64,000 nt of DNA from positions 15,719 to 79,718 of the forward strand of contig JBDTVS010000058.1 in the NCBI GenBank assembly GCA_040007095.1. The letters run 5' to 3'. This DNA comes from Acidobacteriota bacterium. Lineage in GTDB: Bacteria; Acidobacteriota; Vicinamibacteria; Vicinamibacterales; CAVVIG01. The notes beneath the pieces were generated by a model that had not been told where the DNA came from, did not search any database, and saw only the letters and a list, made by a program, of their open reading frames with translations. Shown piece after piece: positions 2,142 to 42,805 of the stretch. The position numbers and the translations under genes are program-made. Every line of letters begins with the position of its first letter. The first letter of the stretch is position 1.

Positions 2142-3041
2142 TCAATGCGCGGTCGTGGAGACCGGCGTCACGCTGACCCCGACGTGCAGCGTGTGGTCCT
2201 GCCCGCCGAGCACCACACCCCGCAGCGGGCTCACGTCCGCGTAGTCGCGTCCCCACGCCAGGACCACGTGGCGCAGCGCCGGCAGCAGACCGTTGGTCGG
2301 ATCCAGATCCACCCAGCCCTGCCGGGAGCACCACACCGCGAGCCAGGCGTGCGACGCGTCGGCGCCGACCAGACGGGGCTGACCGGGCGGCGGATCGGTC
2401 AGCAGATACCCACTCACATAGCGGGCCGCCAACCCCAGCGCGCGCATGCTGGCAATCTGCAGATGCGCGAAATCCTGACAGACGCCATGCCGGTCCTCGA
2501 GCACGCGGCTCACGGGCGTGGCGATCGACGTCGCTCGCGCATCGAAAATGAATTCACGGTGAATGCGATGCATCAGGTCTACCGCGCCGGCCAGGAACGG
2601 ACGTCCCGGCTTGAACGACTTGGCGGCATACGCAGCCAGTTGCGGATCCGGGGTCGCGTACGGCGACGGATAGCTGAACTGGACGGCCTCCTGATACGCA
2701 GCGCTCCTCTTATAGAGCAGCGCGTCCCGTACGACCTCCCAGGCCTCGCTCGCGTCCGGATCGACCTTCGTCTCCGGCGGCCGCACCTCGACCAGGCTGC
2801 GGCTGACCGCGCGCATCCCTTCGTACGGCGTGAGGATGGTGAACTGATCCACCGTGTTCCCGAAGTAGTCGGTGCGCCGGTTCCGATTCGACGGGGCGGG
2901 CTCGACGATCAGATCGTGCGTGTGCAGGCGCTGGCGGGGCAATTCGCGCGGCGTGAGATACGCCACGTGCTGCGAGGTCGACGCACGGCCGGCGTGACGG
3001 TACCGCGTCTCGTGTTCGATCCGATAGAGCGCCGTGGTCAT
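2142..3041 (-). CDS. Transglutaminase family protein (bacterial transglutaminase N-terminal domain plus transglutaminase core)
   Basis: 299 aa. N-terminus 'YRIEHETRYRH' is typical of Bact_transglu_N. Core Cys motif 'GVCQDFAHLQIASMRALGLAARYVSGY', then 'SHAWLAVW' (His) and 'VDLDPTN' (Asp). Confidence 0.85.
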   Translation of the reverse strand: MTTALYRIEHETRYRHAGRASTSQHVAYLTPRELPRQRLHTHDLIVEPAPSNRNRRTDYFGNTVDQFTILTPYEGMRAVSRSLVEVRPPETKVDPDASEAWEVVRDALLYKRSAAYQEAVQFSYPSPYATPDPQLAAYAAKSFKPGRPFLAGAVDLMHRIHREFIFDARATSIATPVSRVLEDRHGVCQDFAHLQIASMRALGLAARYVSGYLLTDPPPGQPRLVGADASHAWLAVWCSRQGWVDLDPTNGLLPALRHVVLAWGRDYADVSPLRGVVLGGQDHTLHVGVSVTPVSTTAH

Positions 3042-5835: not shown

Positions 5836-8800
5836 TCAGGTTCGAAGATCCAGCGTGAACGGAAACTCGCGACTCCGTACCGGCGGCAAGACGCGGACCC
5901 TGCCGGAGGTATGGGCCAACTGTGTGAACCGCGCCAGTCGGCGGCTTTCCGCCTCCAGGCTGTTCACCGGGAGTTGTTCGGAGTTTCGTCCGCCCGGATG
6001 CATCACATGATACTGGCATCCCGCGACGGATTGATCCATCCAGGTGTCCACGATGTCGAAGGTCAGCGGCACATGCACCGGAATCGTCGGATGCAAGCCC
6101 GACGGTGGATGCCAGGCGCGATACCGTAGCCCCGACACCAGCTCGCCCTCCCGGCCCGTCGGCTGCAGCGGCAGCGTGCGACCATTGCACGTGATCGCGA
6201 ACCGATCGCCGGTCATGCCGGTGACGAGCACCTGCAACCGCTCGACCGACGAGTCCACGTAGCGCGCCGTGCCGCTGGCGGTGACCTCCTCGCCAAGCAC
6301 GTGCCAGGGCTCGAGCGCCTGCCTGAGCGTCAGGTGAATCGCGCGCACGGCCAGCTCGCCGGCGATTGGGAAGCGGAACTCGAAGTGTGGTGCGAACCAC
6401 TCCGACGACATCGCGTAGCCGGCGCGCCGTACCTCCTCGAGCACGTCTTCGAAATCCAGCCACACGAAGTACGGGAGCATGAAGCGGTCGTGCAGCTGCG
6501 TACCCCAGCGCACCAGACCCGCTTCGTACGGCTCGCGCCAGAAGCGGGCGATCAACACCCGGAGCAGCAGTTGCTGCGCCAGACTCATGCGGGCATGGGG
6601 CGGCATCTCGAACGCGCGCAGCTCGAGTAGACCGCGACGGCCCGCGGTCGAATCCGGCGAGTAGAGCTTGTCGATGCAGAACTCCGCACGGTGCGTGTTC
6701 CCCGTCAAATCGACGAGCAGATGCCGGAGCGCCCGATCCACCAGCCACGCGGGGGCGGGCGTGCCGGGGGACGGCAGCTTCGAGAACGCAATCTCCAGCT
6801 CATACAAGCTGTCGTTCCGCGCTTCGTCCACGCGCGGCGCCTGGCTCGTCGGACCGAGAAACAGTCCCGAGAACAGATACGACAGGGACGGATGGTTGTG
6901 CCAGTAGCTGATCAGGCTGCGCAGCAAATCGGGACGACGGAGGAACGGGCTGTCGGAGGGGGACCAGCCGCCCAGGACGAAGTGGTTGCCGCCGCCTGTG
7001 CCCGTGTGCCGTCCGTCCACCATGAACTTCTCGGTGGTCAAACCCACCTGACGCGCCTCTTCATACAGCGTCGTCGTCTGCTCGACGAGCTGGTCCCAAT
7101 CGGCTGCGGGCGCCACGTTGACTTCGATCACGCCAGGGTCCGGTGTGATCTGAATGTGGGGCAGCCGCTGGTCGTGCGGCGGCTGGTAGCCTTCGAGCAT
7201 CACGCGCAGGCTGAGGCGGCGGGCGGTCGATTCAATCGCCGCGACCAGATCCAGATAGCCCTCGAGCGTCGAGATCGGCGGCATGAACACGTACAACACG
7301 CCCTTGCGCGGCTCGACACAGAGCGCCGATCGCACCACCCCGTGCGCCGATTCGCCGCGCGCGGGCGCGTCGGCGGACCGTGCGGTGGCAGCGTCAGCTG
7401 CGGTGGCGGTGCCAGGCGCGTGGGCGGGCAGTAGGCCATCAGCGGCGCCGTCAACGCCGCCTTCAGCACCGATGCCGGCGGCGGTGGCGGCGTCAGGCCC
7501 CACCCCGCCGCGCCGGACGTGTGACGATTGCGCTGCGGCGTCTGCTGAGTCCGCTCCGCCGTCTGAATCCGCTCCCGCGTGTGCCGAGTCGGCTTCGCCG
7601 TGGGCCGACTTTGGCCCGGCGAGGGCCGACTCCGCCTCGGAGGGTTCCGTCCCCGGGCGCTCCTGCATCAGCGGTTGGTCGTCGGCCGCCTGATCCGATC
7701 GCGGCGGCAACGGCGCTCGCAGCGCGAACGGATCGCGCTCGAAAACCTCGTCGCGATCGCCCTTGGCCGACCAGGGCAGCGAATCGAGCGGCAGCCGCAG
7801 TCCCATCGGCGAGTCGCCAGGAAAGAGATAGAGACGCTCGGCGCGTAGAAACCACGGCCCCGTGATCCAGGGCGTCGCGCCGCCAGCATGTTTCAGCGGC
7901 AGCGCGTAGCCGACGACCGCATCGAGCCCCTGCGTGAAGATGCGGCGCAACCGATCGCGTTCGAGCTCGTCGTCCAGCCGCGCGTCGAACGGATCGACGT
8001 TCGCCGGCAGGGTGCGCTCGCGCCATAAGTAATAGAAGACGTCTTCGTAGCCGGGTTGGACGTGGGCGGTGGTCAGGTGGAGCTCGGCCGCGAGCGTGGT
8101 GATGAACCGCGCGGCGTCGGCCGCATCGTGGCCTTCGGGATGTCGCTCGTCGGCAATGAGGGCCGGGTCGCGCCAGACGGGCTCGCCATCGGCGCGCCAG
8201 TAGCACCCGAGCGTCCAGCGCGGCAACTGCTCACCCGGATACCACTTGCCTTGACCGAAGTGCAGGAATCCGCCCGCGCCGTATCGCTTTTTCAAACGCC
8301 AGAGCAAATCGGCGGCGCGAAGCCGTTTGGTTGGTCCCTGCGCGGACAGGTTCCACTCGTCGGCATCGCGATCGGTCACCGACACGAACGTCGGCTCGCC
8401 GCCCTGTGTCAACCTGACGTCCTGCCGGCCCAGGTCGCTATCCACCGCTCTGCCAAGTTCGACAATCGCCTGCCACTGTGGGTCGGTGTACGGCTTGGTG
8501 ACGCGCGGCGATTCGTAGATCCGCCGGACCGACATCTCGTGATGGAATTCCACTTCGGATTCGCTGACGCCGCCGGTCACGGGCGCGGCGCCCGTCGGGT
8601 CCGGCGTGCAGGCGAGCGGCAGATGTCCCTCCCCGGCCAGCAGACCCGACGTGGGATCGAAGCCGATCCAGCCGGCGCCAGGCAGATAGGCCTCGCACCA
8701 GGCGTGCAGATCGGTGAAATCGTGATCGGTCCCGACCGGACCGTCGATCGCCTTGATGTCGGCCGTCAGCTGAATCAGGTAGCCCGACACGAAGCGCGCG

Positions 8801-9390
8801 GCGATCCCCAGGTGTCGAAGCAGCTGCACGAGCAGCCACGTCGTGTCACGGCATGAGCCGGACGCCAGGCCGAGCGTCTGCTCGACCGTCTGCACGCCGG
8901 GATCGAGCCTGATGACGTAATGAATGTCCCGCTGGAGTTGTCGATTGATGTCGACGAGCGCGTCGATCGTACGACGGGGCTGCCGGTCGATCGTGCCGAG
9001 GTACCCGGCGAAATGCGGAGTCAGCGGCTCGGTGCGCAAGTACGGCTGCAGTTCGTGCCGCTCCCATTCTTCGTAGACGAACGGGAACATTTCCGCGGCC
9101 GGCTCGAGGAAGAAATCGAACGGATCGTAGACGGCCATCTCGGCCACGACGTCGACCTCGACGCAGAACTCCTTGACCCTCTCGGGAAAGGTCAACCGCG
9201 CCACGTAGTTGCTCTGGGGGTCCTGCTGCCAGTTGATGAAATGTCCGGCAGGCGTGATGCGCTGCGAATAGGACAGGATCGGCGTGCGGCAGTGCGGGGC
9301 CGGACGCAGGCGCACGAGCTGGGGCGACAGCGTGACCAGCCGATCGTAGCGGTACCGCGTCACGTGATTGAGGGCGATGTGAATGCTCAT
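5836..9390 (-). CDS. Large transglutaminase-family / DUF2126 protein
   Basis: The ORF track starts at 9489. I prefer the ATG at 9388-9390 (MSIHIALNHVTRYRYDR), the canonical Bact_transglu_N start. Core Cys motif 'SGSCRDTTWLLVQLLRHLGIAARFVSGY', a long DUF2126-like C-terminal region, and an internal Ala/Asp/Gly low-complexity insert. Confidence 0.85.
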   Translation of the reverse strand: MSIHIALNHVTRYRYDRLVTLSPQLVRLRPAPHCRTPILSYSQRITPAGHFINWQQDPQSNYVARLTFPERVKEFCVEVDVVAEMAVYDPFDFFLEPAAEMFPFVYEEWERHELQPYLRTEPLTPHFAGYLGTIDRQPRRTIDALVDINRQLQRDIHYVIRLDPGVQTVEQTLGLASGSCRDTTWLLVQLLRHLGIAARFVSGYLIQLTADIKAIDGPVGTDHDFTDLHAWCEAYLPGAGWIGFDPTSGLLAGEGHLPLACTPDPTGAAPVTGGVSESEVEFHHEMSVRRIYESPRVTKPYTDPQWQAIVELGRAVDSDLGRQDVRLTQGGEPTFVSVTDRDADEWNLSAQGPTKRLRAADLLWRLKKRYGAGGFLHFGQGKWYPGEQLPRWTLGCYWRADGEPVWRDPALIADERHPEGHDAADAARFITTLAAELHLTTAHVQPGYEDVFYYLWRERTLPANVDPFDARLDDELERDRLRRIFTQGLDAVVGYALPLKHAGGATPWITGPWFLRAERLYLFPGDSPMGLRLPLDSLPWSAKGDRDEVFERDPFALRAPLPPRSDQAADDQPLMQERPGTEPSEAESALAGPKSAHGEADSAHAGADSDGGADSADAAAQSSHVRRGGVGPDAATAAGIGAEGGVDGAADGLLPAHAPGTATAADAATARSADAPARGESAHGVVRSALCVEPRKGVLYVFMPPISTLEGYLDLVAAIESTARRLSLRVMLEGYQPPHDQRLPHIQITPDPGVIEVNVAPAADWDQLVEQTTTLYEEARQVGLTTEKFMVDGRHTGTGGGNHFVLGGWSPSDSPFLRRPDLLRSLISYWHNHPSLSYLFSGLFLGPTSQAPRVDEARNDSLYELEIAFSKLPSPGTPAPAWLVDRALRHLLVDLTGNTHRAEFCIDKLYSPDSTAGRRGLLELRAFEMPPHARMSLAQQLLLRVLIARFWREPYEAGLVRWGTQLHDRFMLPYFVWLDFEDVLEEVRRAGYAMSSEWFAPHFEFRFPIAGELAVRAIHLTLRQALEPWHVLGEEVTASGTARYVDSSVERLQVLVTGMTGDRFAITCNGRTLPLQPTGREGELVSGLRYRAWHPPSGLHPTIPVHVPLTFDIVDTWMDQSVAGCQYHVMHPGGRNSEQLPVNSLEAESRRLARFTQLAHTSGRVRVLPPVRSREFPFTLDLRT

Positions 9391-9668
9391 AATGGGCGCG
9401 AAGTGTGAGCACCCATTATGCATTGGAGCCGACCGCGCCCGGCAGGTCGTTCGAGTTCGATGAGGGCGATCGTTGAAGCGATCGCTCAACCCATCGACAA
9501 TTATGTCGCAATCGTCACGAGCGACCCCGTCGCGCGTGCCCCCTCGTCTGACGAATAACCTGACGCGGCCGCCGCGACTGTCTGTGTGTTTCGCGGCTGG
9601 CTGACCGGCCGACTGGCCGCCTGGGGATGGATTGACATATGTATGTCTTCCGGTACATGGTGTCGAAC

Positions 9669-9911
9669 ATGAGGACCACCGTTCGATTGGATGAGGGACT
9701 GCTGCGCCAGGCGAAGGCCGAGGCGTCGCGAAAAGGCGAGACCGTCACGGCGCTGATCGAGCGCGGCTTACGGCTGGTACTTGCGACGCCTCGCGTCCAC
9801 GGTCGCCGTGCCCGTGTGACGCTGCCGGTGTCGCGTGCCACGGGCGGCACCCATGCCGGAGTGGACCTCGACGATTCACGTGCCGTGATGGATCTGATCG
9901 ACGGACGCTAG
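9669..9911 (+). CDS. vapB: Type II antitoxin (VapB-like)
   Basis: Start chosen at MRTTVRLDEGLLRQAKAEASRKGETVTALIERGLRLVL, a typical antitoxin N-terminus. It ends 5 nt before the PIN toxin gene. Confidence 0.7.
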   Translation: MRTTVRLDEGLLRQAKAEASRKGETVTALIERGLRLVLATPRVHGRRARVTLPVSRATGGTHAGVDLDDSRAVMDLIDGR

Positions 9912-9916
9912 AGCTG

Positions 9917-10336
9917 GTGATTCTTCCAGACGTCAACGTCCTGCTGTACGCCTTCCGCCGCGACGCCGAGCGCCACGACGAGTATCGCGCATGGCTCGAG
10001 GACGTCGTCAACGGCGAGTCCGCCTATGGCATCTCCCCTCAAGTGTTGTCGTCGGTCGTTCGCATCGCCACACACCGTCGCGTGTACGTAAATCCCAGTA
10101 CAACGCCCGAGGCTCTCGCCTTCTGCGACGCGGTCCTCCGGCCGCAACACTGCACCGTCGTCCAGCCTCGCGACCGCCATTGGAGCATCTTCACGGAGCT
10201 CTGTCGTAAGTCTCGTGCGACGGGGAACCTGGTGCAGGATGCCTGGCTCGCCGCGTTGGCCATCGAGTCGGGGTGCGAGCTCTATTTCTTGGCTGGCGGC
10301 GCCTTGCTCTTCGGCGGCACGACCTGCACTTCGTAG
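9917..10336 (+). CDS. vapC: PIN-domain VapC-like toxin with an atypical, probably replaced, C-terminus
   Basis: GTG start. 'ILPDVNVLLYAFRRD' carries the first PIN acidic residue. '..NLVQDAWLAALAIESGCEL' matches the family. The usual '..T.D.DF..' ending is absent, and the last 18 codons overlap the convergent CusF-like gene. Confidence 0.7.
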   Translation: MILPDVNVLLYAFRRDAERHDEYRAWLEDVVNGESAYGISPQVLSSVVRIATHRRVYVNPSTTPEALAFCDAVLRPQHCTVVQPRDRHWSIFTELCRKSRATGNLVQDAWLAALAIESGCELYFLAGGALLFGGTTCTS

Positions 10337-33795: not shown

Positions 33796-34788
33796 CTACG
33801 GGTCCGGTCGTAGTGACGGAGCCGGGGGCAGTCTCGCGTACTCAGCCTTCAATATCTCTGCGTGCCTTGCGGTCTCGGCCGGATCCAGACGGGGAACGGC
33901 CGCCTCATCTTCCGCCGAGATTCCCAAATAGCCCCGGCCACTTGCCCGGGTGGGCAACGGGCGCGAATCAGGCAAGCCGGACGATCCAGTCGATCCGGGA
34001 AGCGCGGATTCCCCGGAGCGCAGCGCATACCATCCGACCGCCAGAAGAGGAACGAGGACCGCGAGCGCGATACCGGTCGCCACACCCCGTCTGGTCGGCG
34101 GCAGCGACATCTTCGGGATCCAGCCCTGAACGCCTATCCCGCCCCAGGCCGGAGCACCTTGTATCTCTCCCCTGAGGAAGCCGAAGTCGATCGTGGTCCC
34201 GGGCGCCAGCTTGATCGTTTTTCCGGGTTCGACGCGGTGCGCGACACCGCCGGGAACCGTTGCCGACCAGGCGTGATCCGTCAGATTCTTGAGGCCGAGC
34301 AGTGCAGGGTCATTCGGGCGGCCGGCCACCTGCGCCGCCGGAGCGCCGGGGCGCCCACTCCGCATCCCCATGACATCCCGTGCGGTGAGCCTCCGCCCTG
34401 CCTTGAGGAGGATTCCCGATCCCGCCGGAGTGCTGAGGACGAAGCCGCTCTGCCCGTCTCGCACTGTTCCTGCGAGCGGACCGAAGTCGATCCGTAGACC
34501 GCTCTCGAGTTTCACGGTTTTCCCCGGCTCGATTTTCCTCCGTCCACCCTCAGGCGCTGGTGCCGACCAGGCATTGCGGCAGAGGTTCTTCAGTCCCAGA
34601 ATGCTGGGATTCGTGGGGTGGCCCGTGACCTCGGCAAATGCCTTGTCAGTTCCGTGGCTCCCCAACTCGACGAACTCCTCCGCGGCGACGGTCGTTCCAT
34701 CCCGAACCTTCAGGGCGCGGCCCGAAGAGAGCCGTATGATGAAAACCTCTTGCGCGCTCACGGCAATCAGGCTATCACGATGCTCCAT
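33796..34788 (-). CDS. Membrane protein with two tandem FHA-like modules (cytoplasmic), one TM helix and a ~75-aa external tail
   Basis: 330 aa. Two ~95-aa repeats each contain ..AEV.GHP.(N/D)P..LGLKNL....W.A..P.G....(I/V)EPGKT(V/I)KL..G..IDFG. These are homologous to the kinase C-terminus. TM helix VATGIALAVLVPLLAVGWYA. Confidence 0.7.
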   Translation of the reverse strand: MEHRDSLIAVSAQEVFIIRLSSGRALKVRDGTTVAAEEFVELGSHGTDKAFAEVTGHPTNPSILGLKNLCRNAWSAPAPEGGRRKIEPGKTVKLESGLRIDFGPLAGTVRDGQSGFVLSTPAGSGILLKAGRRLTARDVMGMRSGRPGAPAAQVAGRPNDPALLGLKNLTDHAWSATVPGGVAHRVEPGKTIKLAPGTTIDFGFLRGEIQGAPAWGGIGVQGWIPKMSLPPTRRGVATGIALAVLVPLLAVGWYALRSGESALPGSTGSSGLPDSRPLPTRASGRGYLGISAEDEAAVPRLDPAETARHAEILKAEYARLPPAPSLRPDP

Positions 34789-34933
34789 CGGCGAACCGCT
34801 CCGGAGGGGACCTAATCAAATCGTCTCCGCCGACAGGGATGGGCTCGCGTCGGGAAGGCGCGACCGAGAGGTGGTCGTGAAAAGGCCTGGATACCGGTTA
34901 CAATCCGCCCGCTCCCGCATTCGGGATGTGACA

Positions 34934-35116
34934 ATGCCGCAGTGTCCCTTCTGTCAATCCGATCTGGGCTCTGGACGCGCCGGGCGCTCTTGCCCGGCCT
35001 GCGGCAAGCCGCTTCCTCAGACGTGGAGTGCAGTGACACCGCGGGTCGGGCAGTTGACGGTGGGCGGTGTGATCGTCACGCTCCTCTGGGTCGTGCTGGT
35101 CAATTCGCGCTGCTGA
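34934..35116 (+). CDS. Zinc-ribbon plus single-TM mini-protein
   Basis: 60 aa from an internal ATG: MPQCPFCQSDL....RSCPACGKPL (CxxC..CxxC), followed by the hydrophobic helix LTVGGVIVTLLWVVLV. It is divergent from the 330-aa gene and sits 35 nt upstream of the next FHA-like gene. Confidence 0.5.
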   Translation: MPQCPFCQSDLGSGRAGRSCPACGKPLPQTWSAVTPRVGQLTVGGVIVTLLWVVLVNSRC

Positions 35117-35150
35117 GCGCGGGACGGATCGAACGTCATGGGGACACAGC

Positions 35151-36257
35151 ATGAGCACGGCTGATACGTTCACTTTGCGACTGAAGTCAGGTCGCACGCT
35201 ATCGTTGCGAGATGGCGTCACGCTGAAAGCCGACGACCTCCTCGGGGTCACATCCACACGTGCTGACGGCGTGGTCGCCGAGGTTTCGCCGAGCCCGCAC
35301 GATCCCAGCGTGCTCGGCCTGATGAACCAGACGCGACACGCGTGGTCCGCCACACTGTCCGACGGCAGTCTGCGCCAGGTCGACCCCGGCAAGAGCATCA
35401 AGTTGGCGGACGGCACGGCGCTCACGATCGCGTCGACGCGCGTCGCTGTCCGACAACGCACTGGCGGATTCGTCCTGAGCATCCCGACCGTTGGCGATAT
35501 TCCACTCAAGAGCGGGACGCGGCTGAAAGCCGGCGAACTGCTCGGTGTGGCCGCGAGCCCCACGGGCGTGGTAGCGGAGGTCGGACGCCACCCGAAAGAT
35601 CCTGCCATTCTGGGCCTCAGGAATCTCACGAATCTTCCCTGGTCCGCCCGCCTCCCGGACGGAAGCCAACGACGCGTCGAACCCGGCAAGAGCATCTCCC
35701 TGACAGGCAGAACGACCATCACCTTCAGCCACGTCGAAGCAACGATCGAAGAACCGATAGCCACGCCCGGGCGGCGATCGCTGGGCCTCAAACCGTACTT
35801 CGATGAGCAGCGGGCGCAGTCGTCGGCGGCACATCCGGTGCGCTCCACGCCGCGGCCGGAGCAGCGCTCGGGATTTGACTGGCAGAATTTTCGACCGGAC
35901 CTTCTGAGCAGCGCGGTCGCCATCGGCTTCGCCGTGCTGACGCGGAGCGTCGTGCCCGTCATCATCTCGATGCTATTGGTCGGCGGCATGCGTCATTTCG
36001 GCCAGGGGATCGATCGAGCGCTCTCGCCGTTCTGGCGACTTCGGGACGTCATCCCTCGACCGCTGCGGATGGGTCTCGGCTGGATCGTTCCAATAGGTGT
36101 GGGCTATTTGATGACGGCATCCCCGACGCTGCAGAACGGGATTGCGCGTTTGCCATTCGGCGCGCCCGAGATCTCCGTCTTCACTGCCACCGCAGTGATC
36201 GCCGCGCCGCTCGCATATTTCCTCGTCCGTGAACCTCAGCGGGGAGCCACGTCGTGA
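35151..36257 (+). CDS. Membrane protein with two tandem FHA-like modules and a C-terminal multi-TM region
   Basis: 368 aa. The repeats contain ..VVAEV...P.DP..LGL.N.T...WSA.L.DGS.R.V(D/E)PGKSI.L. The C-terminal ~130 aa hold about three hydrophobic helices. The stop overlaps the next gene's start by 4 nt. Confidence 0.7.
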   Translation: MSTADTFTLRLKSGRTLSLRDGVTLKADDLLGVTSTRADGVVAEVSPSPHDPSVLGLMNQTRHAWSATLSDGSLRQVDPGKSIKLADGTALTIASTRVAVRQRTGGFVLSIPTVGDIPLKSGTRLKAGELLGVAASPTGVVAEVGRHPKDPAILGLRNLTNLPWSARLPDGSQRRVEPGKSISLTGRTTITFSHVEATIEEPIATPGRRSLGLKPYFDEQRAQSSAAHPVRSTPRPEQRSGFDWQNFRPDLLSSAVAIGFAVLTRSVVPVIISMLLVGGMRHFGQGIDRALSPFWRLRDVIPRPLRMGLGWIVPIGVGYLMTASPTLQNGIARLPFGAPEISVFTATAVIAAPLAYFLVREPQRGATS

Positions 36258-37591
36258 GCCCGTCGCTGGGTAAGGATGGTGAGACGTTGAGGCATCGGGT
36301 GCGCGGGCCGTGGGCCCTGGTCGTGAGTCTCTTTCTTCTGGCGCTGACGCCGCGTGTCTTTGCCGACTCGTGCTTCGAGCGGGCCACGTCGATTCGTCAA
36401 GGAAGCATTCCGTACGGCCAGCCCGATGGCGATTGTGATGCGGGCGGAAAAGCAGGTGCGTACTTCTCGTGGTTTGCCGCGGGCGCGGCAGCTGCAGCCG
36501 CGGCACGGGCGGCGGCTCGCCGGACGCAACAGGGCAAGGCCGAGCGGCCCAACCATTGGCCCACCAACCTGACAGGACCGACGGCGTTCTGCGAACTGGG
36601 CACGGCGATCGCCCAGGAGGACTATCTGCAGACGAAAGTGCCGACGCAGGGAGGGGGCGAGCGCGACCTCAACGATATCGAGAAGACGCTGTACCTCTAC
36701 GAGCGGATGCGGGAAGCCGCGAGGGTGTATGGCCTGAAGGCGCCGACCGAGGGATTCGATTTCATGGACAAATACAAGGTCGGGTTGAGCCGTCGCGATA
36801 CGCTCGTCTCCTGGGGCGTCATCGCCGGTGCCACCCTGCTCGGCGGTTTGGCCGGGAGCGCGGTTTTTGGTCCTGCCGGGTACCTGATCGGTCCCTCACT
36901 CGGGGGACTGGCTGGCACACTCGCGGGAATACTTGGCACGGTCACCGGGGCCTTGGCTTCCGGAGCCGCAGCGCTCCTGTCGGGTTTCGCGACCAACGTG
37001 GGCGATGCGGCTGACCGGTCGATGGACCGGTTCACCGACAAGCAGATTCAGCTCGGTGGCACCGGAATCGGCGCGGTTATCGGCGGCCTGGTCGGAACCC
37101 TGGGGGGTCCTCCCGGCGTGGCGGTCGGGATCGCGGGTGGCGGAATTCTGGGCACCATGCTGTCGCGGCTGTTCACCGGTGGCGACCAGGAGGAGGTCGA
37201 CAGTCTCAAAATGAGCGGAGTCGGCCACTGTGGAGAGTGGTCGCTGGCCTTCAGCAGGCTGCTCAAATGCGCCGGCGTGGCGCAGCAGAAGGTGGCCTAT
37301 GCCGATCACAAACCGGATTCTGTTGCGAGCTACGGCTTTGGCGGGACCGACACGACCGTGATCGTCAAGGACGGCGACGGCAAGAATCGGGTCTTCGACA
37401 TCTTTCGAGAGATGTATGAATCGAAGAACAAAAATCTTCCGTCCGACAAGAGCGTCTTCTCGAATCTGCCAATGACCGCCGGGGATCTTCAACCTTACGA
37501 CTCGATCGACCAGACGCCCAGGGTCTGGCAAAAGGCGATGAAAAAGGAGTTCATCAAGGACAACCAGGGCAACGTGCTCTGGCAGCAGTAA
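36254..37591 (+). CDS. Exported glycine-zipper membrane protein with a C-terminal transglutaminase/papain-like Cys motif (candidate effector)
   Basis: 445 aa. Signal peptide (..LLALTPRVFA). Two long GxxxG-rich blocks (GGLAGSAVFGPAGYLIGPSLGGLAGTLAGILGTVTGALASGAA; GGTGIGAVIGGLVGTLGGPPGVAVGIAGGGILG). 'GVGHCGEWSLAFSRLLKCAGV' resembles the transglutaminase-core Cys motif seen in the genes at 2142 and 5836. Confidence 0.6.
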   Translation: MSPSLGKDGETLRHRVRGPWALVVSLFLLALTPRVFADSCFERATSIRQGSIPYGQPDGDCDAGGKAGAYFSWFAAGAAAAAAARAAARRTQQGKAERPNHWPTNLTGPTAFCELGTAIAQEDYLQTKVPTQGGGERDLNDIEKTLYLYERMREAARVYGLKAPTEGFDFMDKYKVGLSRRDTLVSWGVIAGATLLGGLAGSAVFGPAGYLIGPSLGGLAGTLAGILGTVTGALASGAAALLSGFATNVGDAADRSMDRFTDKQIQLGGTGIGAVIGGLVGTLGGPPGVAVGIAGGGILGTMLSRLFTGGDQEEVDSLKMSGVGHCGEWSLAFSRLLKCAGVAQQKVAYADHKPDSVASYGFGGTDTTVIVKDGDGKNRVFDIFREMYESKNKNLPSDKSVFSNLPMTAGDLQPYDSIDQTPRVWQKAMKKEFIKDNQGNVLWQQ

Positions 37592-37672
37592 GCGACTGCC
37601 GGAGTCCGATGATATGCTTTCCGCCATTCTGCAATACGCCGCAGCAGTCATTTCGCCGGGAGAAGTCCGCGC

Positions 37673-38284
37673 GTGACAGCCGCGATCTGGCGCCGACCCT
37701 CAATACTTCTGGCGTTCTTCGCCGCGTCGACCTCGGGGCTGGCCATCCTGCTGTACGCCGCCCGCCTGATGACGCTGACCTACGCCGTCTGGATCCTGGC
37801 GCCGCTGACTGCCCTGTTGTTCATCGCGCTGCTGGCGGCGACGGGGCTGAACCCGGAAGACCAGCTGGTTGACCGTCTGCGCGGCGGGCTGATCGCGGGC
37901 TTCATTGGCTTGGTGGCGTACGACATCGTTCGGCTCTTGATCCTGTTGGCGGGAGTGCCCTTCAATCCGTTTCGGCCGATCGAGGTGTACGGACTCCTCA
38001 TCCTTGACCGCTTCGATGACACACTGCTGACGAAGTCGGTTGGCTGGGCCTTTCACATATGGAATGGCCTGTCGTTCGCAGCGATGTATACGCTGGCGGT
38101 CGGACGGGGGCGCGTGCTGTGGGGACTGCTCTGGGGGCTGACGCTGGAGGTGGCGATGCTCTCGAGCTACCCGTCCATCTTTCAGCTATCGGTGAACCGG
38201 CCGTTCGTGATTGTGAGCCTCACGGGACATTTCTTTTACGGCCTCGCCATTGGCATCGCGGCGCGCCGGTTCGTTCGATCCTGA
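37673..38284 (+). CDS. Polytopic membrane protein of unknown function
   Basis: 203 aa with about six hydrophobic helices. No recognisable motif. Confidence 0.6.
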   Translation: MTAAIWRRPSILLAFFAASTSGLAILLYAARLMTLTYAVWILAPLTALLFIALLAATGLNPEDQLVDRLRGGLIAGFIGLVAYDIVRLLILLAGVPFNPFRPIEVYGLLILDRFDDTLLTKSVGWAFHIWNGLSFAAMYTLAVGRGRVLWGLLWGLTLEVAMLSSYPSIFQLSVNRPFVIVSLTGHFFYGLAIGIAARRFVRS

Positions 38285-38695
38285 TTAGAGCTTCCCGTCC
38301 AGAGGCCTTTGGGCTCGACGCGCACCACCCACACCGATAGGCTCGGCACGTCAGTCAGCAAGAGCCGGACAGCGTCGACGATCCCGCGGCCGCGCTGGGT
38401 CATCTTCACGAGTGTGCGTGACTTTCGCGTCTTGGAATTCAGATTGACCTCGGCGGGACTCGACCCTGCTCCACCACAGCCGCCGCTGTTTGCAAACCCC
38501 GCCACCATTCTCGTTGCGCCTTCTTGGATCGGATGCGTATGATACACGTGCCAAATCAAGCATTCGCGTTGAACCCTCGACGCAGGCCGAAGCCGCAGAG
38601 GTAAAGGCCCAGCTTCACAACCGCCGCGCTGCATGGCGGCGACGTAGTCGTTCGAAGGGTTTCCCGCTCACGATCCGGATTGAGAGGACCTGACT

Positions 38696-39388
38696 ATGGC
38701 TCTGAGACCAGGCGGCGAACTAGCGACCCGGCCACTCCATTTCATCTGGATCTGCGATTGTTCCGGATCGATGGCGGTCGACGGCAAGATCCAGTCGTTG
38801 AACAACGCGATCCGCGAAGCCGTTCCGCACATGCAGAAGATCGCCGACGAGAATCCCAACGCTCAGGTGCTGGTGCGTTCGTTGATGTTCTCGACCGGCG
38901 CCAGTTGGCATGTGTCGCAACCGACGCCGATCGCCAGCTTCACCTGGTCTGATTTGACCGCCGACGGCGTCACCGACATGGGTCAGGCACTCTCGTCGGT
39001 CGCGAAGGAACTGCGCATTCCACCGATGACCGATCGCGCGCTGCCACCGGTGCTGGTGCTGATTTCCGACGGCCGTCCCACCGACGACTGGAACGCGGGG
39101 CTCAAGGAACTGATGTCGCTTCCCTGGGGAAAGAAATCGGTGCGCGTCGCGATTGCGATTGGCGACGATGCGGACCTCGACGTGCTGCAGGAATTTATCG
39201 GTCCAACCGGTCCGGCGCCGCTGCAGGCGAACAATCCAGAAGCGCTCGTCGGGTACATCAGGTGGGTATCGACGGTCGTGCTGCAATCGGTGTCGCAGCC
39301 CGCGAGCCAGGTCGATCCGAACGCCGCACTGATCCCCGAGGCGCCAAGCGCAGACGATCTCGGCGCGGCCGCGGCCACCATCTGGTAA
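38696..39388 (+). CDS. vWA domain protein (TerY-like)
   Basis: 230 aa. MIDAS motif 'FIWICDCSGSM', '..VTDMGQAL..' and '..VLVLISDGRPTD..'. No signal or TM segment. Its TAA stop overlaps the PP2C ATG (TAATG). Confidence 0.85.
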   Translation: MALRPGGELATRPLHFIWICDCSGSMAVDGKIQSLNNAIREAVPHMQKIADENPNAQVLVRSLMFSTGASWHVSQPTPIASFTWSDLTADGVTDMGQALSSVAKELRIPPMTDRALPPVLVLISDGRPTDDWNAGLKELMSLPWGKKSVRVAIAIGDDADLDVLQEFIGPTGPAPLQANNPEALVGYIRWVSTVVLQSVSQPASQVDPNAALIPEAPSADDLGAAAATIW

Positions 39389-40467
39389 TGAACGGCGGCG
39401 TTTCAGCGTGGCAGCTGATCGGTGAGTGCGTTCGTGGCGCGTCCCACGTGCGGAACGTTTCGCCGAATCAGGATGCGATTGCGTGGCGAGTCGATTCGAC
39501 GACGAACCGTGCGGCCATCATGGCCGTGTCCGACGGTCACGGCAGCGCGAAGTGCTTTCGAAGCGATGCGGGGTCCAGGCTCGCCGTGAACGCGGCCCTT
39601 CGCATCCTGGAAAGTTTTGCATGCAATCCCGCGCCGGTGGATCTGACGGCAGTGGATGGTCAGGCGGCGGATGGTACCGCGGCGGATGCCAAGGCGAACG
39701 ATGGCATCGAAGCCGGGCGCAATGGGCCTGATGGGAACGGGGCCGCGCCCGATCGCCACTCCCGACTGGCTCAGAACATCGTCCTCGAATGGCAGAAGGA
39801 TGTCGACGCGGCGCTAGAGGAGCATCCGCTTTCAACCGAGGAGATGGAGTCGCTCGAGGCGCGAGAGGGCGCCGCGGCTCGTCAGGCCGTGGACCGCAAT
39901 CCTCGCCTGGCTTACGGCGCCACGCTGCTTGCCGCGGTGATTACCGATGCCTACATCCTCTACCTTCAGCTCGGCGACGGCGACATCGTCACCGTCTCGG
40001 ATACGGGGGCCGCGAGCCGGCCGCTCGAACACGATCAGCGGTTGTTCGCGAACGAGACGACGTCGCTCTGCGCCCGAGACGCCTGGCGCGAGATTCGCGT
40101 TCGCTGCGACGAACCGGCCGAACCGGCGCCCGCGTTGATCCTGCTGTCAACCGACGGCTACGCCAATTCCTTCAGAACCGATGCGGGATTTCTGGCGGTG
40201 GGATCGGATCTGCTCGAGATCATCCGCGCCGAAGGGCTCGACAGCGTCGGCGGTCATCTGGAGGGCTGGCTGACCGAGACGTCCCAGGGCGGCAGCGGCG
40301 ATGACATTACACTTGGCATTCTGTGCCGGATGGACGCGGTCGCGTCGTCCAGTAGGTCGTCCAGTAGGTCGTCCAGTAGGTCGTCCAGCAGGTCGTCCAG
40401 CAGATCGCCCGGCGACGACCCGGCGATCCCGCCCGGACCCGCGGACACAACCGAAGTGGCCCGTTGA
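39388..40467 (+). CDS. PP2C-family Ser/Thr protein phosphatase with a C-terminal (SSSR)5 tail
   Basis: Start chosen at MNGGVSAWQLIGECVRGASHVRN..NQDA. Motifs '..AVSDGHGS..' and '..LLSTDGY..' match PP2C metal-binding signatures. Confidence 0.85.
   Translation: MNGGVSAWQLIGECVRGASHVRNVSPNQDAIAWRVDSTTNRAAIMAVSDGHGSAKCFRSDAGSRLAVNAALRILESFACNPAPVDLTAVDGQAADGTAADAKANDGIEAGRNGPDGNGAAPDRHSRLAQNIVLEWQKDVDAALEEHPLSTEEMESLEAREGAAARQAVDRNPRLAYGATLLAAVITDAYILYLQLGDGDIVTVSDTGAASRPLEHDQRLFANETTSLCARDAWREIRVRCDEPAEPAPALILLSTDGYANSFRTDAGFLAVGSDLLEIIRAEGLDSVGGHLEGWLTETSQGGSGDDITLGILCRMDAVASSSRSSSRSSSRSSSRSSSRSPGDDPAIPPGPADTTEVAR
40344..40403. repeat. In-frame 12-bp tandem repeat x5 encoding (SSSR)5
   Basis: gtcgtccagtag x3 followed by gtcgtccagcag x2. 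Confidence 0.85.
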
Positions 40468-41786
40468 ACCAGATCCTCGAGACCAATCAGATCGTACGGA
40501 CCAGCCCTTCGGCCCTGCAGTGCCGGGTTCTGCGGCTGCTCGGGGGCGGCGGACAGGGCGAAGTCTATCTGGCCGATCTCCACGGCAAGCTGGTCGCCTT
40601 GAAGTGGTATCGGCCGATCGCGGCCACGCCACGGCAGCAGACCGGACTCGAAGAGCTCGTGAGGAAGGGGTCTCCAGACGAGCGGTTTCTCTGGCCGCTC
40701 GAGCTGGCGTTCGACCCCCAGACTCCCGGATTCGGGTACGTGATGCTGCTGCGCGAGCCGCGCTTCAAGAGCCTCTACGATCTGATGAAGTGCCGGATCG
40801 CGCCGAGCTTTCGCACGCTCGCCACGGTCGGCCTGTCGCTGTCGGACGCGTTCCTCCGCTTGCATTCCCAGGGCCTCTGCTACCGGGACATCAATTTCGG
40901 CAACGTGTTCTTCGATCCCGATACCGGCGAGGTTCTGATTTGCGATAACGACAACGTCGCGGTTGACGGAGAAGACGAGGGCGTGCTCGGCACGCCGCGT
41001 TTCATGGCGCCCGAGATCGTGCGCGGCGACGCCAGGCCGACGTCGCAATCCGATTTGTTCTCGCTGGCCGTGCTGCTCTTCTACATCTTCATGGTGCACC
41101 ACCCGCTCGAAGGTGCCCAGGAAGCGTCGATCAAGGCGCTCGATGCGCCGGCGATGAAGTGGCTGTACGGCACCAAGCCGGTATTCATCTTCGATCCCGT
41201 CGATCGATGCAATGCGCCGGTGCCCGGACTGCACGACAACGCGGTGATCTACTGGTCGATCTACCCGCAGTTTTTCCGCGACCTCTTCACCAAGGCGTTC
41301 ACCGACGGGATCCGTGATCCGCGCAACGGCAGGGTGCGCGAGAGTGAATGGCGCGCCACGATGGTCCGGCTGCGGGACTCGATCGTTTATTGTCCCGCCT
41401 GCAATGAGCAGAACTTCTACGACGGCGACGCGCTGAAAGCGTCCGGCGGCAAGGCACCAGCATGCTGGGCCTGTCAGAAGGAGGTTCGCCTGCCGCCGCG
41501 AATCCGGATCGGCAAGAGCACAATCGTGATGCTCAACCACGACACGCGCCTGTTCCCGCACCATGTGGACGACCGCTGCGGCTACGATTTCTCCGAGCCG
41601 ATCGCGGAGGTGGCGAAGCATCCGACCGACGCGCGGATCTGGGGGCTCAAGAACGTCTCGAAGACACAATGGACCGGCCAGATCGCCGACGGCACGACCA
41701 GGGATGTGCCGCCAGGACGCAGCGTAACGCTGGCGGCCGGGACACGGATCAATTTCGGTCAGCGAGAGGGCGAGATTCGGGTGTGA
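40464..41786 (+). CDS. Ser/Thr protein kinase with a C-terminal zinc ribbon and an FHA-like module
   Basis: 440 aa. The TTG start overlaps the PP2C stop. Gly-loop LGGGGQGEVY, VALK lysine, catalytic YRDINFGN, DND (DFG-equivalent), GTPRFMAPE. Then CPAC...CWAC, then a module containing ..AEVAKHPTDARIWGLKNVSKTQW......V.PGRSVTL..G..INFG. Confidence 0.9.
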   Translation: MNQILETNQIVRTSPSALQCRVLRLLGGGGQGEVYLADLHGKLVALKWYRPIAATPRQQTGLEELVRKGSPDERFLWPLELAFDPQTPGFGYVMLLREPRFKSLYDLMKCRIAPSFRTLATVGLSLSDAFLRLHSQGLCYRDINFGNVFFDPDTGEVLICDNDNVAVDGEDEGVLGTPRFMAPEIVRGDARPTSQSDLFSLAVLLFYIFMVHHPLEGAQEASIKALDAPAMKWLYGTKPVFIFDPVDRCNAPVPGLHDNAVIYWSIYPQFFRDLFTKAFTDGIRDPRNGRVRESEWRATMVRLRDSIVYCPACNEQNFYDGDALKASGGKAPACWACQKEVRLPPRIRIGKSTIVMLNHDTRLFPHHVDDRCGYDFSEPIAEVAKHPTDARIWGLKNVSKTQWTGQIADGTTRDVPPGRSVTLAAGTRINFGQREGEIRV

Positions 41787-41941
41787 GCCTGATGCCGTTG
41801 GGAAATTCCGTAACGGTTTGTGGCCTGAGACCAGGGCGCTCCAGGCAAGCGACGAGCAACGTGAGCAGGCGATAGACAGCGGACCAGAATGTTTATGTGA
41901 TTCGTTTCGGTTCCCACACCGAACGGTTTTGCGGATCAGCC

Positions 41942-42805
41942 ATGGATAATCAGCCACGACAGAGCCTTCGCGACCTCGTTGCCAAGCACGGCAAGAACGT
42001 CTGTGACGACCCACGGCGATGCGAAGCGTTGTTGCGGGACGCCTGCGGGGCGCACAAACGCGAACTGAACATCCTGATGAACGCGCTCCGCGAGCGCGTG
42101 CCGACGGACCTGCAGACGGGCGATCCCAGACTGCCGCAGGACATCCTGTTGTCGCGGCTCACGACCCGGCTGACGGACCTCGGGCTGGCCGAGGATGCGG
42201 CGCGATGGTCGGTGGATTCATGGGCCCTCGCGCTCGGCGTGATCGCGAAGCCGCGTCCCGATGCGCCGGCGGCGGCGCCATCCCAAGGTCCGACCGGGAC
42301 AACGCAGCGCACAGCGACGCCGAAGCCGCCGAAGCCGACGACACCGGTGGTCGCGGCGAAACCCGTGGTCGCGGTGAAGCGTCCGTCGAGCGCATCACCT
42401 TCGTCGAGTGGATCATCGTCGCCGGGCACTGGCACCTTCGCAAGCCGCTCGACGCCGTCGACGCCCACCGTCTCCTCCGGACCCAGTCGTGCGGGCGCGT
42501 CACCGCCGCCGGCAAGCAACCCCGCGAAGAGCGGTGGCTCTTCCGGATCGGGCGGAGCCCTCCAAGGCTTGTGGGAGTTTGGAGGGTTCCTCCTCTCGAT
42601 TCCGCTGCTGTTCGGATCGGCCATCGTTGTCGCCGGAGCGATGTTCTGGACGCTCTCTCAGATGGGATATGAGTACAAGCAGCTGTCGTCCACCGCTCAA
42701 GCCCTGATAGGCATCCTTTTCCTCGGATTGACGGTCCTCGTGATGGGGGCCATCGTAGCCCTATTCGAAAAGCTCAAGGAGCTGTTTACGCAGTCTCCGA
42801 AGTAG
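41942..42805 (+). CDS. Membrane protein: N-terminal helical domain, long Ser/Thr/Pro-rich linker, two C-terminal TM helices
   Basis: Start chosen at MDNQPRQSLRDLVAKHGKNVCDDPRRCEALLRDACGAHKRELNILMNALRERVP. A ~110-aa S/T/P/A low-complexity stretch follows, then two hydrophobic helices. Confidence 0.6.
   Translation: MDNQPRQSLRDLVAKHGKNVCDDPRRCEALLRDACGAHKRELNILMNALRERVPTDLQTGDPRLPQDILLSRLTTRLTDLGLAEDAARWSVDSWALALGVIAKPRPDAPAAAPSQGPTGTTQRTATPKPPKPTTPVVAAKPVVAVKRPSSASPSSSGSSSPGTGTFASRSTPSTPTVSSGPSRAGASPPPASNPAKSGGSSGSGGALQGLWEFGGFLLSIPLLFGSAIVVAGAMFWTLSQMGYEYKQLSSTAQALIGILFLGLTVLVMGAIVALFEKLKELFTQSPK

Follow-up and report, generated by a model that had tools for sequence, protein, structure and literature searches.

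What does the gene at 36254-37591 (+ strand) encode, and is its product the effector of the signalling genes that surround it? The original prediction for this part of the window (the whole 64,000-nucleotide stretch of DNA that was analysed) was an exported glycine-zipper protein with a transglutaminase-like cysteine motif, expressed together with signalling proteins. The reading that best explains the evidence, to which we assign a probability of about 0.5, is a membrane-tethered thiol enzyme that would use a Cys-Asp pair and act as the output of a signalling cluster.

The open reading frame has a coding-type GC3 of 0.76, encodes a protein of 445 amino acids (here P0001) and is a real gene. 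Its GTG start overlaps the TGA stop of the upstream gene, and the sequence GGGGAG lies 8 nt upstream of the start; the start/stop coupling that had been described is therefore present, although the junction is GTGA and not of the ATGA type. Codon 12 (36287) is an in-frame TTG that lines up with Met1 of an orthologue and, as far as the sequence tells, would be an equally good start. Because of the GTGA overlap, and because a sequence scan of 35151-38284 detected no intergenic terminator-like site, this stretch was read as an operon. The only sigma-70-like match is a weak one at 34877-34904, and a 60-amino acid ORF encoding a zinc ribbon plus a transmembrane segment (34934-35116, +) may, on weak evidence, be the operon's first gene. 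No paralogue of P0001 was found in its own genome, a scan of viral contigs gave no matches, and neither did scans of genome and metagenome contigs for the locus with a two-sequence alignment. The gene was present in none of 460 genomes of the same phylum (60 relatives and 400 others), which suggests that it was acquired.

Word-indexed homologue searches with P0001 were swamped by glycine-rich words and found two, one and three proteins. An exhaustive HMM search detected the module in 99 of 1.8 billion cluster representatives when the cutoff was E ≤ 1e-3, and in 57 when it was E < 1e-10; nearly all of the matches cover two separate stretches of P0001 with a short linker between them. Judged from these alignments, residues 99-180 and 311-445 form one module of ~215 residues that is split in P0001. 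Its N-terminal part (aa 99-180; 36548-36793, +) is helical, carries the conserved residues W102, P103, F112, G116, Y159, L161 and R180, and was modelled with a pLDDT of 88-95 over aa 100-165. Its C-terminal part (aa 311-445; 37184-37588, +) appears from the alignments, a profile match and the model to be a transglutaminase-like core, with a DxE..LK motif, a G-H-C326-G-E-W helix and strands at 345-351, 366-372 and 378-381. The protein had been thought to possess a globular part at its C-terminus only; this view was abandoned, as the conserved module also includes aa 99-180 and is interrupted by the glycine zipper.

An alignment of 37 family members (A2), too diverse for pattern scanning, showed F112, G116, G324, C326, D366, T367, R379, D382 and K435 to be invariant; a larger alignment contained 48 sequences, and residue counts from it are given per 47 aligned members. 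The proteins that carry the module (~57 cluster representatives) are mostly secreted and multidomain, with CarboxypepD_reg, PKD, vWA, PDZ or coiled-coil tails and varied gene neighbours. P0001 had no match in Pfam, NCBIfam or PADLOC, and no Pfam model covered the module in the other family members scanned. The family is rare, unnamed and described in none of these three libraries.

Several lines of evidence bear on the fold. A single-sequence search of the PDB with P0001 returned noise only. In a profile search of the PDB the top four chains were all of the transglutaminase fold (best E 0.15): PNGase came first, with both PNGase alignments located at the catalytic Cys (GRCGEW versus GNCGEW), and the four also included a transglutaminase-like protein and a protein-glutamine gamma-glutamyltransferase, ranks 3 and 4 matching the same query stretch. 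One family member, P0035, reached the Pfam cutoff for Transglut_core (PF01841; 23.3 bits, cutoff 23). An AlphaFold model built from 10 sequences places Cys326 at the N-terminus of a helix (326-339) that precedes the three strands, and the two parts of the core in this model had pLDDT values of 88-95 and 62-95. Foldseek gave a best E of 0.039 (LapG), and nearly all of its top 20 matches came from the transglutaminase-like superfamily; the leading ones were LapG, TglA, a transglutaminase-like protein, N-acetyltransferases, PNGase, NTAQ1, TG2, factor XIII and menin, and in BFVD a phage transglutaminase was found at rank two. Every structural and profile match points to the transglutaminase fold, and none is individually significant. 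The proposal that the Cys motif sits on a transglutaminase/papain-like core is supported by the PDB ranking, the P0035 match, the model and the Foldseek matches. A further claim, that the motif mirrors the two transglutaminase-core proteins of the same window (2142-3041 and 5836-9489, - strand, ~30 kb from the P0001 gene), was rejected: hhalign against these genuine cores found the right register over 30 columns, but the score was not significant (P=0.089).

Compared with the transglutaminase-like or papain-like superfamily (PF01841; PNGase, LapG-type proteins, arylamine N-acetyltransferases, NTAQ1), the module shares the G-x-C at the N-terminus of a helix, the three strands and the Asp that ends the third. 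It differs in having Asp366-Thr367 at the position of the catalytic His, in an additional N-terminal helical lobe (aa 99-180) with invariant residues of its own, and in the 130-residue membrane insertion that its domain holds, while P0001 itself has no significant sequence match in the superfamily. LapG-type proteinases are periplasmic Cys-His-Asp proteases, whereas P0001 lacks the His and its structural match to them is weak. Taken together, we hold it to be quite probable that the domain has a transglutaminase-like fold and constitutes a new family. The family would then lie within the transglutaminase-like superfamily, keeping the nucleophilic Cys and the Asp and replacing the His with an Asp-Thr pair.

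The candidate active site was analysed in the 48-sequence alignment. The motif GVGHCGEW is present in P0001 as first described, within GVGHCGEWSLAFSRLLKCAGV, and its Cys326 (TGT, 37229-37231, +), the candidate nucleophile, is invariant in the 47 aligned family members, as is G324 of the G-x-C context; the cysteine is therefore conserved in orthologues, as the original prediction needed it to be. Thr367 and Asp382 are also found in 47/47 and Asp366 in 44/47, almost every family member has Arg379 and Lys435, and P0001 retains all six of Cys326, Asp366, Thr367, Arg379, Asp382 and Lys435. No conserved His was detected anywhere in the module, the sole His-rich column being position 389 (His in 28/48 sequences, Glu in P0001). 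Of the downstream residues proposed to complete a triad, the Asp of RVFD (Asp382; 37397-37399, +) stood, being invariant and located where strand 378-381 ends, in the place of the triad Asp; the His of YADHKPD (His352) did not, its column being variable and also holding K, S, N and D, and no Cys-His-Asp triad is present. Strand 366-372, behind the Cys helix, bears no conserved His and begins with Asp366-Thr367 (37349-37354, +), which would occupy the strand position of the transglutaminase His, as mapped by strand order and motif alignment and not by coordinates.

These residues can be understood in two ways. According to the preferred reading, Cys326 would be activated by Asp366 rather than by a His, making the protein a thiol enzyme (an amidase, protease or transamidase). 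The precedent for this chemistry is the microbial transglutaminase of Streptomyces mobaraensis, in which Cys64-Asp255 is taken as the catalytic diad and the D255A mutant is inactive (PMC2777024). It is a thiol transamidase in which Asp, not His, is the assumed partner of Cys, and the only precedent that we found; the likeness is one of mechanism only, as that protein is a secreted soluble enzyme of different fold and sequence for which no homology to P0001 was shown. A thiol enzyme without a His is unusual, and the domain could be a binding scaffold. Under this second view the module lost its His and became a non-catalytic binding domain, like menin or erythrocyte protein 4.2, and the zipper hairpins would serve to tether partners from the kinase/phosphatase cluster to the membrane. 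It would explain why no His is conserved in the module, the Foldseek matches include menin, whose transglutaminase-like fold is inactive, and the vWA and beta-rich domains of the cluster suggest complex assembly. A similar suggestion was made for kinase-PP2C-vWA sets (PMC7159879). Nevertheless, the nucleophile position holds an invariant Cys, and Asp366/Thr367, Arg379, Asp382 and Lys435 are conserved with it across ~50% sequence divergence and many architectures, a pattern that has the look of an active site. Secreted proteins seldom retain a lone Cys that has no function, so that its retention in this family also speaks against a scaffold, which we regard as unlikely. Whether the thiol enzyme is active appears evenly balanced. 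If it is, His-independent thiol catalysis would be extended to the transglutaminase-like fold; even if it is not, the corrected domain boundaries and proposed triad are still useful.

The glycine zipper occupies an insertion (aa 181-310; 36794-37183, +) into a loop of the module. Only a small subgroup has it, and 30 of the 37 sequences in alignment A2 show a gap there. The two zipper runs of the original prediction are indeed present, as Gly-rich hydrophobic stretches at aa 185-245 and 265-305 that comprise four segments. Fifteen G(i)/G(i+4) pairs were counted, compared with 8.0 +/- 2.1 in composition-preserving shuffles (p about 0.001), indicating that the glycine periodicity is real and not merely compositional; spacing was enriched at i+3, i+4 and i+7, and consecutive (G/A/S)xxxGxxxG motifs were found. 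The insertion can be read as two helical hairpins with a polar loop (246-264) between them, the model placing helices here with low confidence (30-55). Its length varies and its sequence is poorly conserved: P0003 and P0004 have one such hairpin where P0001 has two. The hairpins would insert into the membrane and hold the enzyme there, and may in addition bring about oligomerisation.

The periodicity on four hydrophobic segments also lends itself to the view first taken of this protein, in which a signal from the kinase cluster causes the zipper helices to oligomerise into a pore, as an abortive-infection-type or competition effector, and the Cys domain is an accessory. The type VII secretion effector TelE and the type VI secretion effector Tde1 require their glycine zippers for membrane action and translocation, respectively, and such motifs have been connected with membrane insertion (PMC10434224, PMC10240207); P0001 resembles these and VacA-type GxxxGxxxG zippers in its repeated GxxxG on hydrophobic helices. 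The kinase of the cluster, moreover, matches defence-associated kinase models in PADLOC, and the absence of the gene from the 460 genomes would fit an acquired effector. However, in contrast to those systems the zipper of P0001 interrupts an enzyme-like domain from within, its copy number differs between orthologues, and a secretion-system context is missing. What is conserved is the enzyme-like module and not the zipper; PADLOC gave no match for P0001 or its membrane neighbours; no immunity-like partner, secretion-system or polymorphic-toxin marker was found nearby; and by a rough hydropathy computation the hydrophobicity of the zipper segments is no more than marginal. A role as a pore-forming effector is possible but unsupported, and the toxin view as a whole seems distinctly unlikely.

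The side of the membrane on which the module resides was addressed from the N-terminus. By inspection, P0001 begins with a probable signal peptide (aa 1-37; 36254-36364, +) consisting of an RHRVR n-region, an WALVVSLFLLAL h-region and TPRVFA/D, with predicted cleavage at VFA/DSC (the slash marks the junction); the A/DxC junction is common to six homologues (P0003, P0004, P0052, P0053, P0069 and P0075), which agrees with the signal peptide that had been predicted. The leader that follows (aa 38-96; 36365-36541, +) contains a Cys40...Cys61 loop, an Ala-rich hydrophobic helix at aa ~67-85, which is probably a stop-transfer anchor, and the basic patch RAAARRTQQGK. Unrelated proteins begin with the same leader, every homologue that bears it has the basic patch behind the Ala-rich helix, and the AlphaFold model has a helix at 59-93; the hydropathy of the Ala-rich segment is only marginal, the Hessa-scale values being no more than a rough guide. 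A signal peptide followed by a Cys-Cys loop (29 residues), an Ala-rich helix and basic residues would have the module face the cytoplasm, so that most likely only ~29 residues remain outside the cell and the enzyme module lies on the cytoplasmic face. Accepting this layout, export of the catalytic module is doubtful.

A cytoplasmic module sits awkwardly with the rest of the family, in most of whose members the module stands directly behind the signal peptide, implying an extracytoplasmic location. Cys113 and Cys339, a pair specific to the subgroup in the 48-sequence alignment, could moreover form a disulfide, which would argue for the periplasm. Both observations would suit an envelope enzyme that has nothing to do with the signalling genes: its module would be periplasmic as a whole and act on an envelope protein or polymer in the manner of LapG-type proteases, the Ala-rich helix would not be transmembrane, the zipper hairpin would dip into the membrane from outside, and the triad neighbourhood would be due to chance. 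That periplasmic LapG is the top Foldseek match, and that most family members are plainly secreted with varied tails and neighbours, is consistent with this model. It does not readily accommodate the start/stop overlap with the upstream gene, the recurrence of the same seven gene types at a second locus (see below) or the basic patch behind the Ala-rich helix in all leader-bearing homologues. Furthermore, a four-Cys zinc ribbon, usually a cytoplasmic feature, forms the C-terminus of P0035, P0064 and P0070, which are members of the subgroup. We consider an envelope enzyme very unlikely.

The remaining evidence concerns the neighbouring genes. The upstream gene (35151-36257, +) encodes a 368-residue protein with two ~95-residue beta-rich domain copies and a C-terminus with multiple transmembrane segments. 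It had been called FHA-like, an identity that found no support: none of nine repeat copies matched Pfam FHA at E ≤ 10, and a profile search of the PDB gave no match. Downstream lies a conserved neighbour, a 203-residue DUF6789 membrane protein (37673-38284, +), followed by genes for a vWA protein (38696-39388, +; Pfam VWA E 3e-4, below cutoff), a PP2C phosphatase joined to it by a TAATG junction (39388-40467, +; PP2C_2 4.5e-42) and a Ser/Thr kinase that also carries a zinc ribbon and a single beta-rich domain (40464-41786, +; Pkinase 3.4e-16). These three adjacent genes form a triad beside the P0001 gene, as in the TerY-phosphorylation triad and in E. coli yegL-yegK-yegI, where vWA, PP2C and Ser/Thr kinase genes are likewise adjacent and translationally coupled. 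We know of no biological role or output for vWA-PP2C-kinase triads. E. coli YegI and YegK have been characterised biochemically (bioRxiv 10.1101/819920, 10.1101/303594), and the papers cited on such triads make no mention of a transglutaminase-like glycine-zipper partner, a DUF6789 protein or double beta-rich membrane proteins.

At the one other orthologous locus examined (L001), vWA, PP2C, kinase and DUF6789 genes (the last 56% identical at the protein level), double beta-rich proteins and a post-kinase gene were again found, so that seven gene types are shared at 36-62% protein identity, with a different gene order (n=2 loci). Family members without the insertion showed no kinase linkage and no common neighbour theme. 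The connection to the signalling genes claimed by the original prediction was thus seen at two loci and not around the insertion-less members. Following the preferred reading of a membrane-tethered thiol enzyme, a cleaved signal peptide, a disulfide loop and an Ala-rich stop-transfer helix would leave the module on the cytoplasmic face, where it could be controlled by the adjacent vWA-PP2C-kinase triad and the membrane proteins with beta-rich domains. That P0001 is the functional output of the kinase cluster is a tentative suggestion. A stronger version, in which a kinase-gated conflict or stress system has P0001 as its executioner, appears very improbable; here, the triggered triad would cause the zipper hairpins of the Cys-Asp transglutaminase-like enzyme to oligomerise at the inner membrane, leading to membrane perforation or to covalent cross-linking or cleavage of a target, and TerY-phosphorylation triads, so far without a function, would gain a new effector class. 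In either case P0001 combines two uncommon features, a membrane hairpin inside the domain and a conserved place beside a vWA-PP2C-kinase triad, and it offers a concrete candidate with which to ask what these triads control.

Two more genes flank the cluster. The post-kinase gene (41897-42805, +), which has a counterpart in L001, encodes a helical domain, a Ser/Thr/Pro-rich linker and two transmembrane helices, and a divergently transcribed paralogue at 33796-34788 (- strand) carries two beta-rich domains and one transmembrane helix.

P0001, the 445-residue product of the open reading frame at 36254-37591 (+ strand; GC at third positions 0.76, typical of the window's genes), probably adopts the transglutaminase-like fold (probability about 0.8), in a new form that lacks the catalytic His and carries a glycine-zipper membrane insertion inside the domain. 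The original prediction for this gene was largely right in what it observed and partly right in how it interpreted it. P0001 has no match in Pfam, NCBIfam or PADLOC, and a word-indexed search returned a single relative, the orthologue P0003 from an ENA metagenome, which shares 54% of its residues with P0001 across aa 25-163 and 36% across aa 267-445, its Gly-rich middle being much shorter. Running the two-sequence profile in an exhaustive HMM search gave 99 matches at E<=1e-3, 57 of them at E<1e-10. Nearly all cover two stretches of P0001, approximately aa 99-180 and 311-445, and in most the intervening linker is only 6-12 residues. Because the matches join both stretches through a short linker, they constitute one module of ~215 residues, and the separate C-terminal globular part originally proposed does not hold. 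In most family members the module lies straight behind a signal peptide, and the tails after it differ (CarboxypepD_reg, PKD, vWA, PDZ-like, long coiled coils, Cys-rich regions); no Pfam model covered the module itself in any member scanned. One member (metagenome locus L014, 126-1409) has an in-frame stop inside the N-terminal part of the module and is a pseudogene unless that stop is a sequencing error. The module was found neither in 60 close relatives nor in 400 genomes sampled across the same phylum, and P0001 has no paralogue in its own genome; absence from these 460 genomes and a single copy at home fit horizontal acquisition of the island.

A search of 177,635 PDB sequences with the family profile ranked yeast and mouse-type peptide:N-glycanase top, at the catalytic GRCGEW motif (E 0.15), followed by a transglutaminase-like protein and a protein-glutamine gamma-glutamyltransferase, none of these top four being individually significant. 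The homologue P0035 scored 23.3 bits against Pfam Transglut_core (cutoff 23) over the Cys helix. An AlphaFold model from the two-sequence alignment had a pLDDT of 37, and a 10-sequence alignment, with homologues added from a Planctomycetaceae MAG and eight metagenome contigs, gave 88-95 for aa 100-165, 62-95 for aa 320-445, 56-77 for the leader and 30-55 for the insertion. Here, Cys326 opens a helix (326-339) that is followed by strands 345-351, 366-372 and 378-381, with Asp382 closing the third, so that in the predicted structure the order of elements is that of a transglutaminase core. The window's own transglutaminase proteins follow the order C...ARYVSGY...SHAWLAV...WVDLDP; mapped by element order rather than by coordinates, Asp366-Thr367 would occupy the place of the transglutaminase His. 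Foldseek comparison of the model with the PDB, the structural check proposed at the outset, returned nothing below E=0.001, yet the entries listed come almost purely from the transglutaminase-like superfamily (LapG, TglA, a transglutaminase-like axonemal protein, arylamine N-acetyltransferases, a putative protease, PNGase, NTAQ1, GdmF, TG2, factor XIII, menin, pseudomurein endoisopeptidase and Josephin-type enzymes). A phage transglutaminase took second place in BFVD. When the family was aligned by hhalign with the genuine transglutaminase cores of the window and of L001, the metagenome locus encoding P0003, the Cys helices fell in register but without significance (P=0.089), and the argument from mirroring of the window's two transglutaminase Cys motifs is rejected. 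The fold assignment is likely because several weak signals agree, no single test being significant.

The GVGHCGEWSLAFSRLLKCAGV motif lies at aa 322-342. Nine positions are invariant in a 37-sequence alignment (F112, G116, G324, C326, D366, T367, R379, D382, K435), and a further set is at least 90% conserved (W102, P103, Y159, L161, R180, D311, E313, L318, K319, E328, D351, F381, P406, W425, K431); P0001 keeps all of them. With 48 sequences, C326, T367 and D382 were each present in 47/47, D366 in 44/47, R379 in 45/47 and K435 in 46/47. A Cys that varies among orthologues had been named beforehand as a refuting finding; Cys326 does not vary. The proposed Cys-His-Asp triad fared differently: Cys326 and Asp382 are invariant, but the His352 column is variable (K, S, N, D) and the triad does not exist. 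The sole His-rich column is position 389 (His in 28/48; Glu in P0001). Cys enzymes rarely do without His, but there is a precedent: microbial transglutaminase is held to use Cys64 and Asp255 as its catalytic diad, and its D255A variant has no activity (PMC2777024). Invariant Cys326, Thr367 and Asp382, near-invariant Asp366, Arg379 and Lys435, and Glu328 (~90%) look like an active site; other thiol chemistries, such as Cys-Lys-acid triads, are possible. A rival reading takes P0001 as a binding scaffold. Most likely, P0001 would be a membrane-tethered Cys-Asp thiol enzyme serving as an output of the adjacent vWA-PP2C-kinase cluster.

Between conserved Arg180 and Asp311, aa 181-310 form an insertion limited to a subgroup (P0001, P0003, P0004, P0006, P0007, P0010, P0025, P0026, P0035, P0051, P0064, P0070, P0072) and variable in length: P0003 and P0004 have one hairpin each, P0001 has two. 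It contains two hydrophobic Gly-rich stretches, aa 185-245 and 265-305. Gly-Gly pairs at i+4 number 15 across aa 185-305, compared with 8.0 +/- 2.1 in composition-preserving shuffles (p ~0.001), and spacings of 3 and 7 are likewise raised, indicating a true helical glycine zipper; the GxxxG runs reported earlier thus carry periodicity beyond composition. As an alternative, P0001 could be a zipper pore. Since the two halves of the module must share one side, the insertion must cross the membrane an even number of times or never.

In acgtcGTGAgc the GTG start of P0001 and the TGA stop of the upstream gene overlap, and GGGGAG precedes the start by 8 nt, so the overlap stands and the claimed ATGA is in fact GTGA. 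An in-frame TTG at codon 12, aligning with the orthologue's Met1, is an equally plausible start, and the two genes are tightly packed whichever is used. The N-terminus has the predicted shape of a signal peptide (RHRVR, WALVVSLFLLAL, VFA|DSC) and begins a leader (36254-36541, aa 1-96) in which the signal peptide and a conserved A|DxC junction are followed by a second Cys (DPDC), then by a hydrophobic helix rich in Ala and Gly and by a basic patch. P0003 and P0004 retain this leader, which also heads the otherwise unrelated proteins P0052, P0053, P0069, P0075 and P0093; it looks like an undescribed, portable anchoring module whose tiny ectodomain is stapled by a disulfide. If the signal peptide is cleaved and the next helix, backed by basic residues, stops transfer, ~29 residues would remain outside and the module would lie in the cytoplasm, a placement we somewhat favour. 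The C-termini of insertion carriers P0035, P0064 and P0070 form a four-Cys zinc ribbon (W.C.CG..N....C..C), which suggests that in this subgroup the chain ends in the cytoplasm and speaks against P0001 being a periplasmic enzyme unrelated to the cluster. That alternative gains from most of the family being plainly secreted, which, like the marginal hydrophobicity of P0001's Ala- and Gly-rich helices, also weighs against a cytoplasmic module. Moreover, an extra pair, Cys113/Cys339 (codons 36590-36592 and 37268-37270), is confined to the leader-bearing subgroup (P0001, P0003, P0004, P0035, P0051), other members having A, H, Q or D, and G; it may be a disulfide, as a periplasmic enzyme might contain, or a metal site, and bears on the module's membrane side.

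The first operon gene may be a 60-aa ORF (34934-35116, +) encoding a CxxC...CxxC zinc ribbon and one TM helix, just 5' of which lies the only sigma-70-like promoter match in 34700-38800 (34877-34904). It is followed by the upstream gene (35151-36257, +; 368 aa), with two ~95-aa beta-rich domains and a multi-TM tail, then P0001 and a DUF6789 membrane protein (37673-38284, +); in a consensus scan, the genes from 35151 to 38284 have nothing resembling a terminator between them. After a 412-nt gap come vWA, PP2C and kinase genes (all +), the kinase carrying a zinc ribbon and one beta-rich domain, and finally a helical, Ser/Thr/Pro-rich, two-TM protein (+). A double-beta-rich paralogue (33796-34788, -) is divergently transcribed. 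The beta-rich domain thus occurs in five copies in three window proteins (35151-36257, 33796-34788 and the kinase C-terminus, 41496-41783, +) and also in L001 at 6796-8163 (-) and 8287-9381 (+). It matches neither Pfam FHA at E<=10 nor any PDB profile, leaving the 'FHA-like' label of the upstream gene unproven. L001 carries all gene types of the series at 36-62% identity, in a different order and with an extra DUF6789/beta-rich pair; the P0001-type gene is linked to the vWA-PP2C-kinase cluster in two loci; beside insertion-less family members no kinase linkage was found, and their neighbours varied. The DUF6789 protein always accompanies double-beta-rich membrane proteins; L001 has two such pairs, their DUF6789 genes lying at 9378-10004 and 6122-6799 (-). 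A classical Bact_transglu_N/Transglut_core gene pair lies 2-30 kb from the cluster both in the window (2142-3041 and 5836-9489, both -) and in the unrelated contig L001 (13210-14951, -), which may be coincidence.
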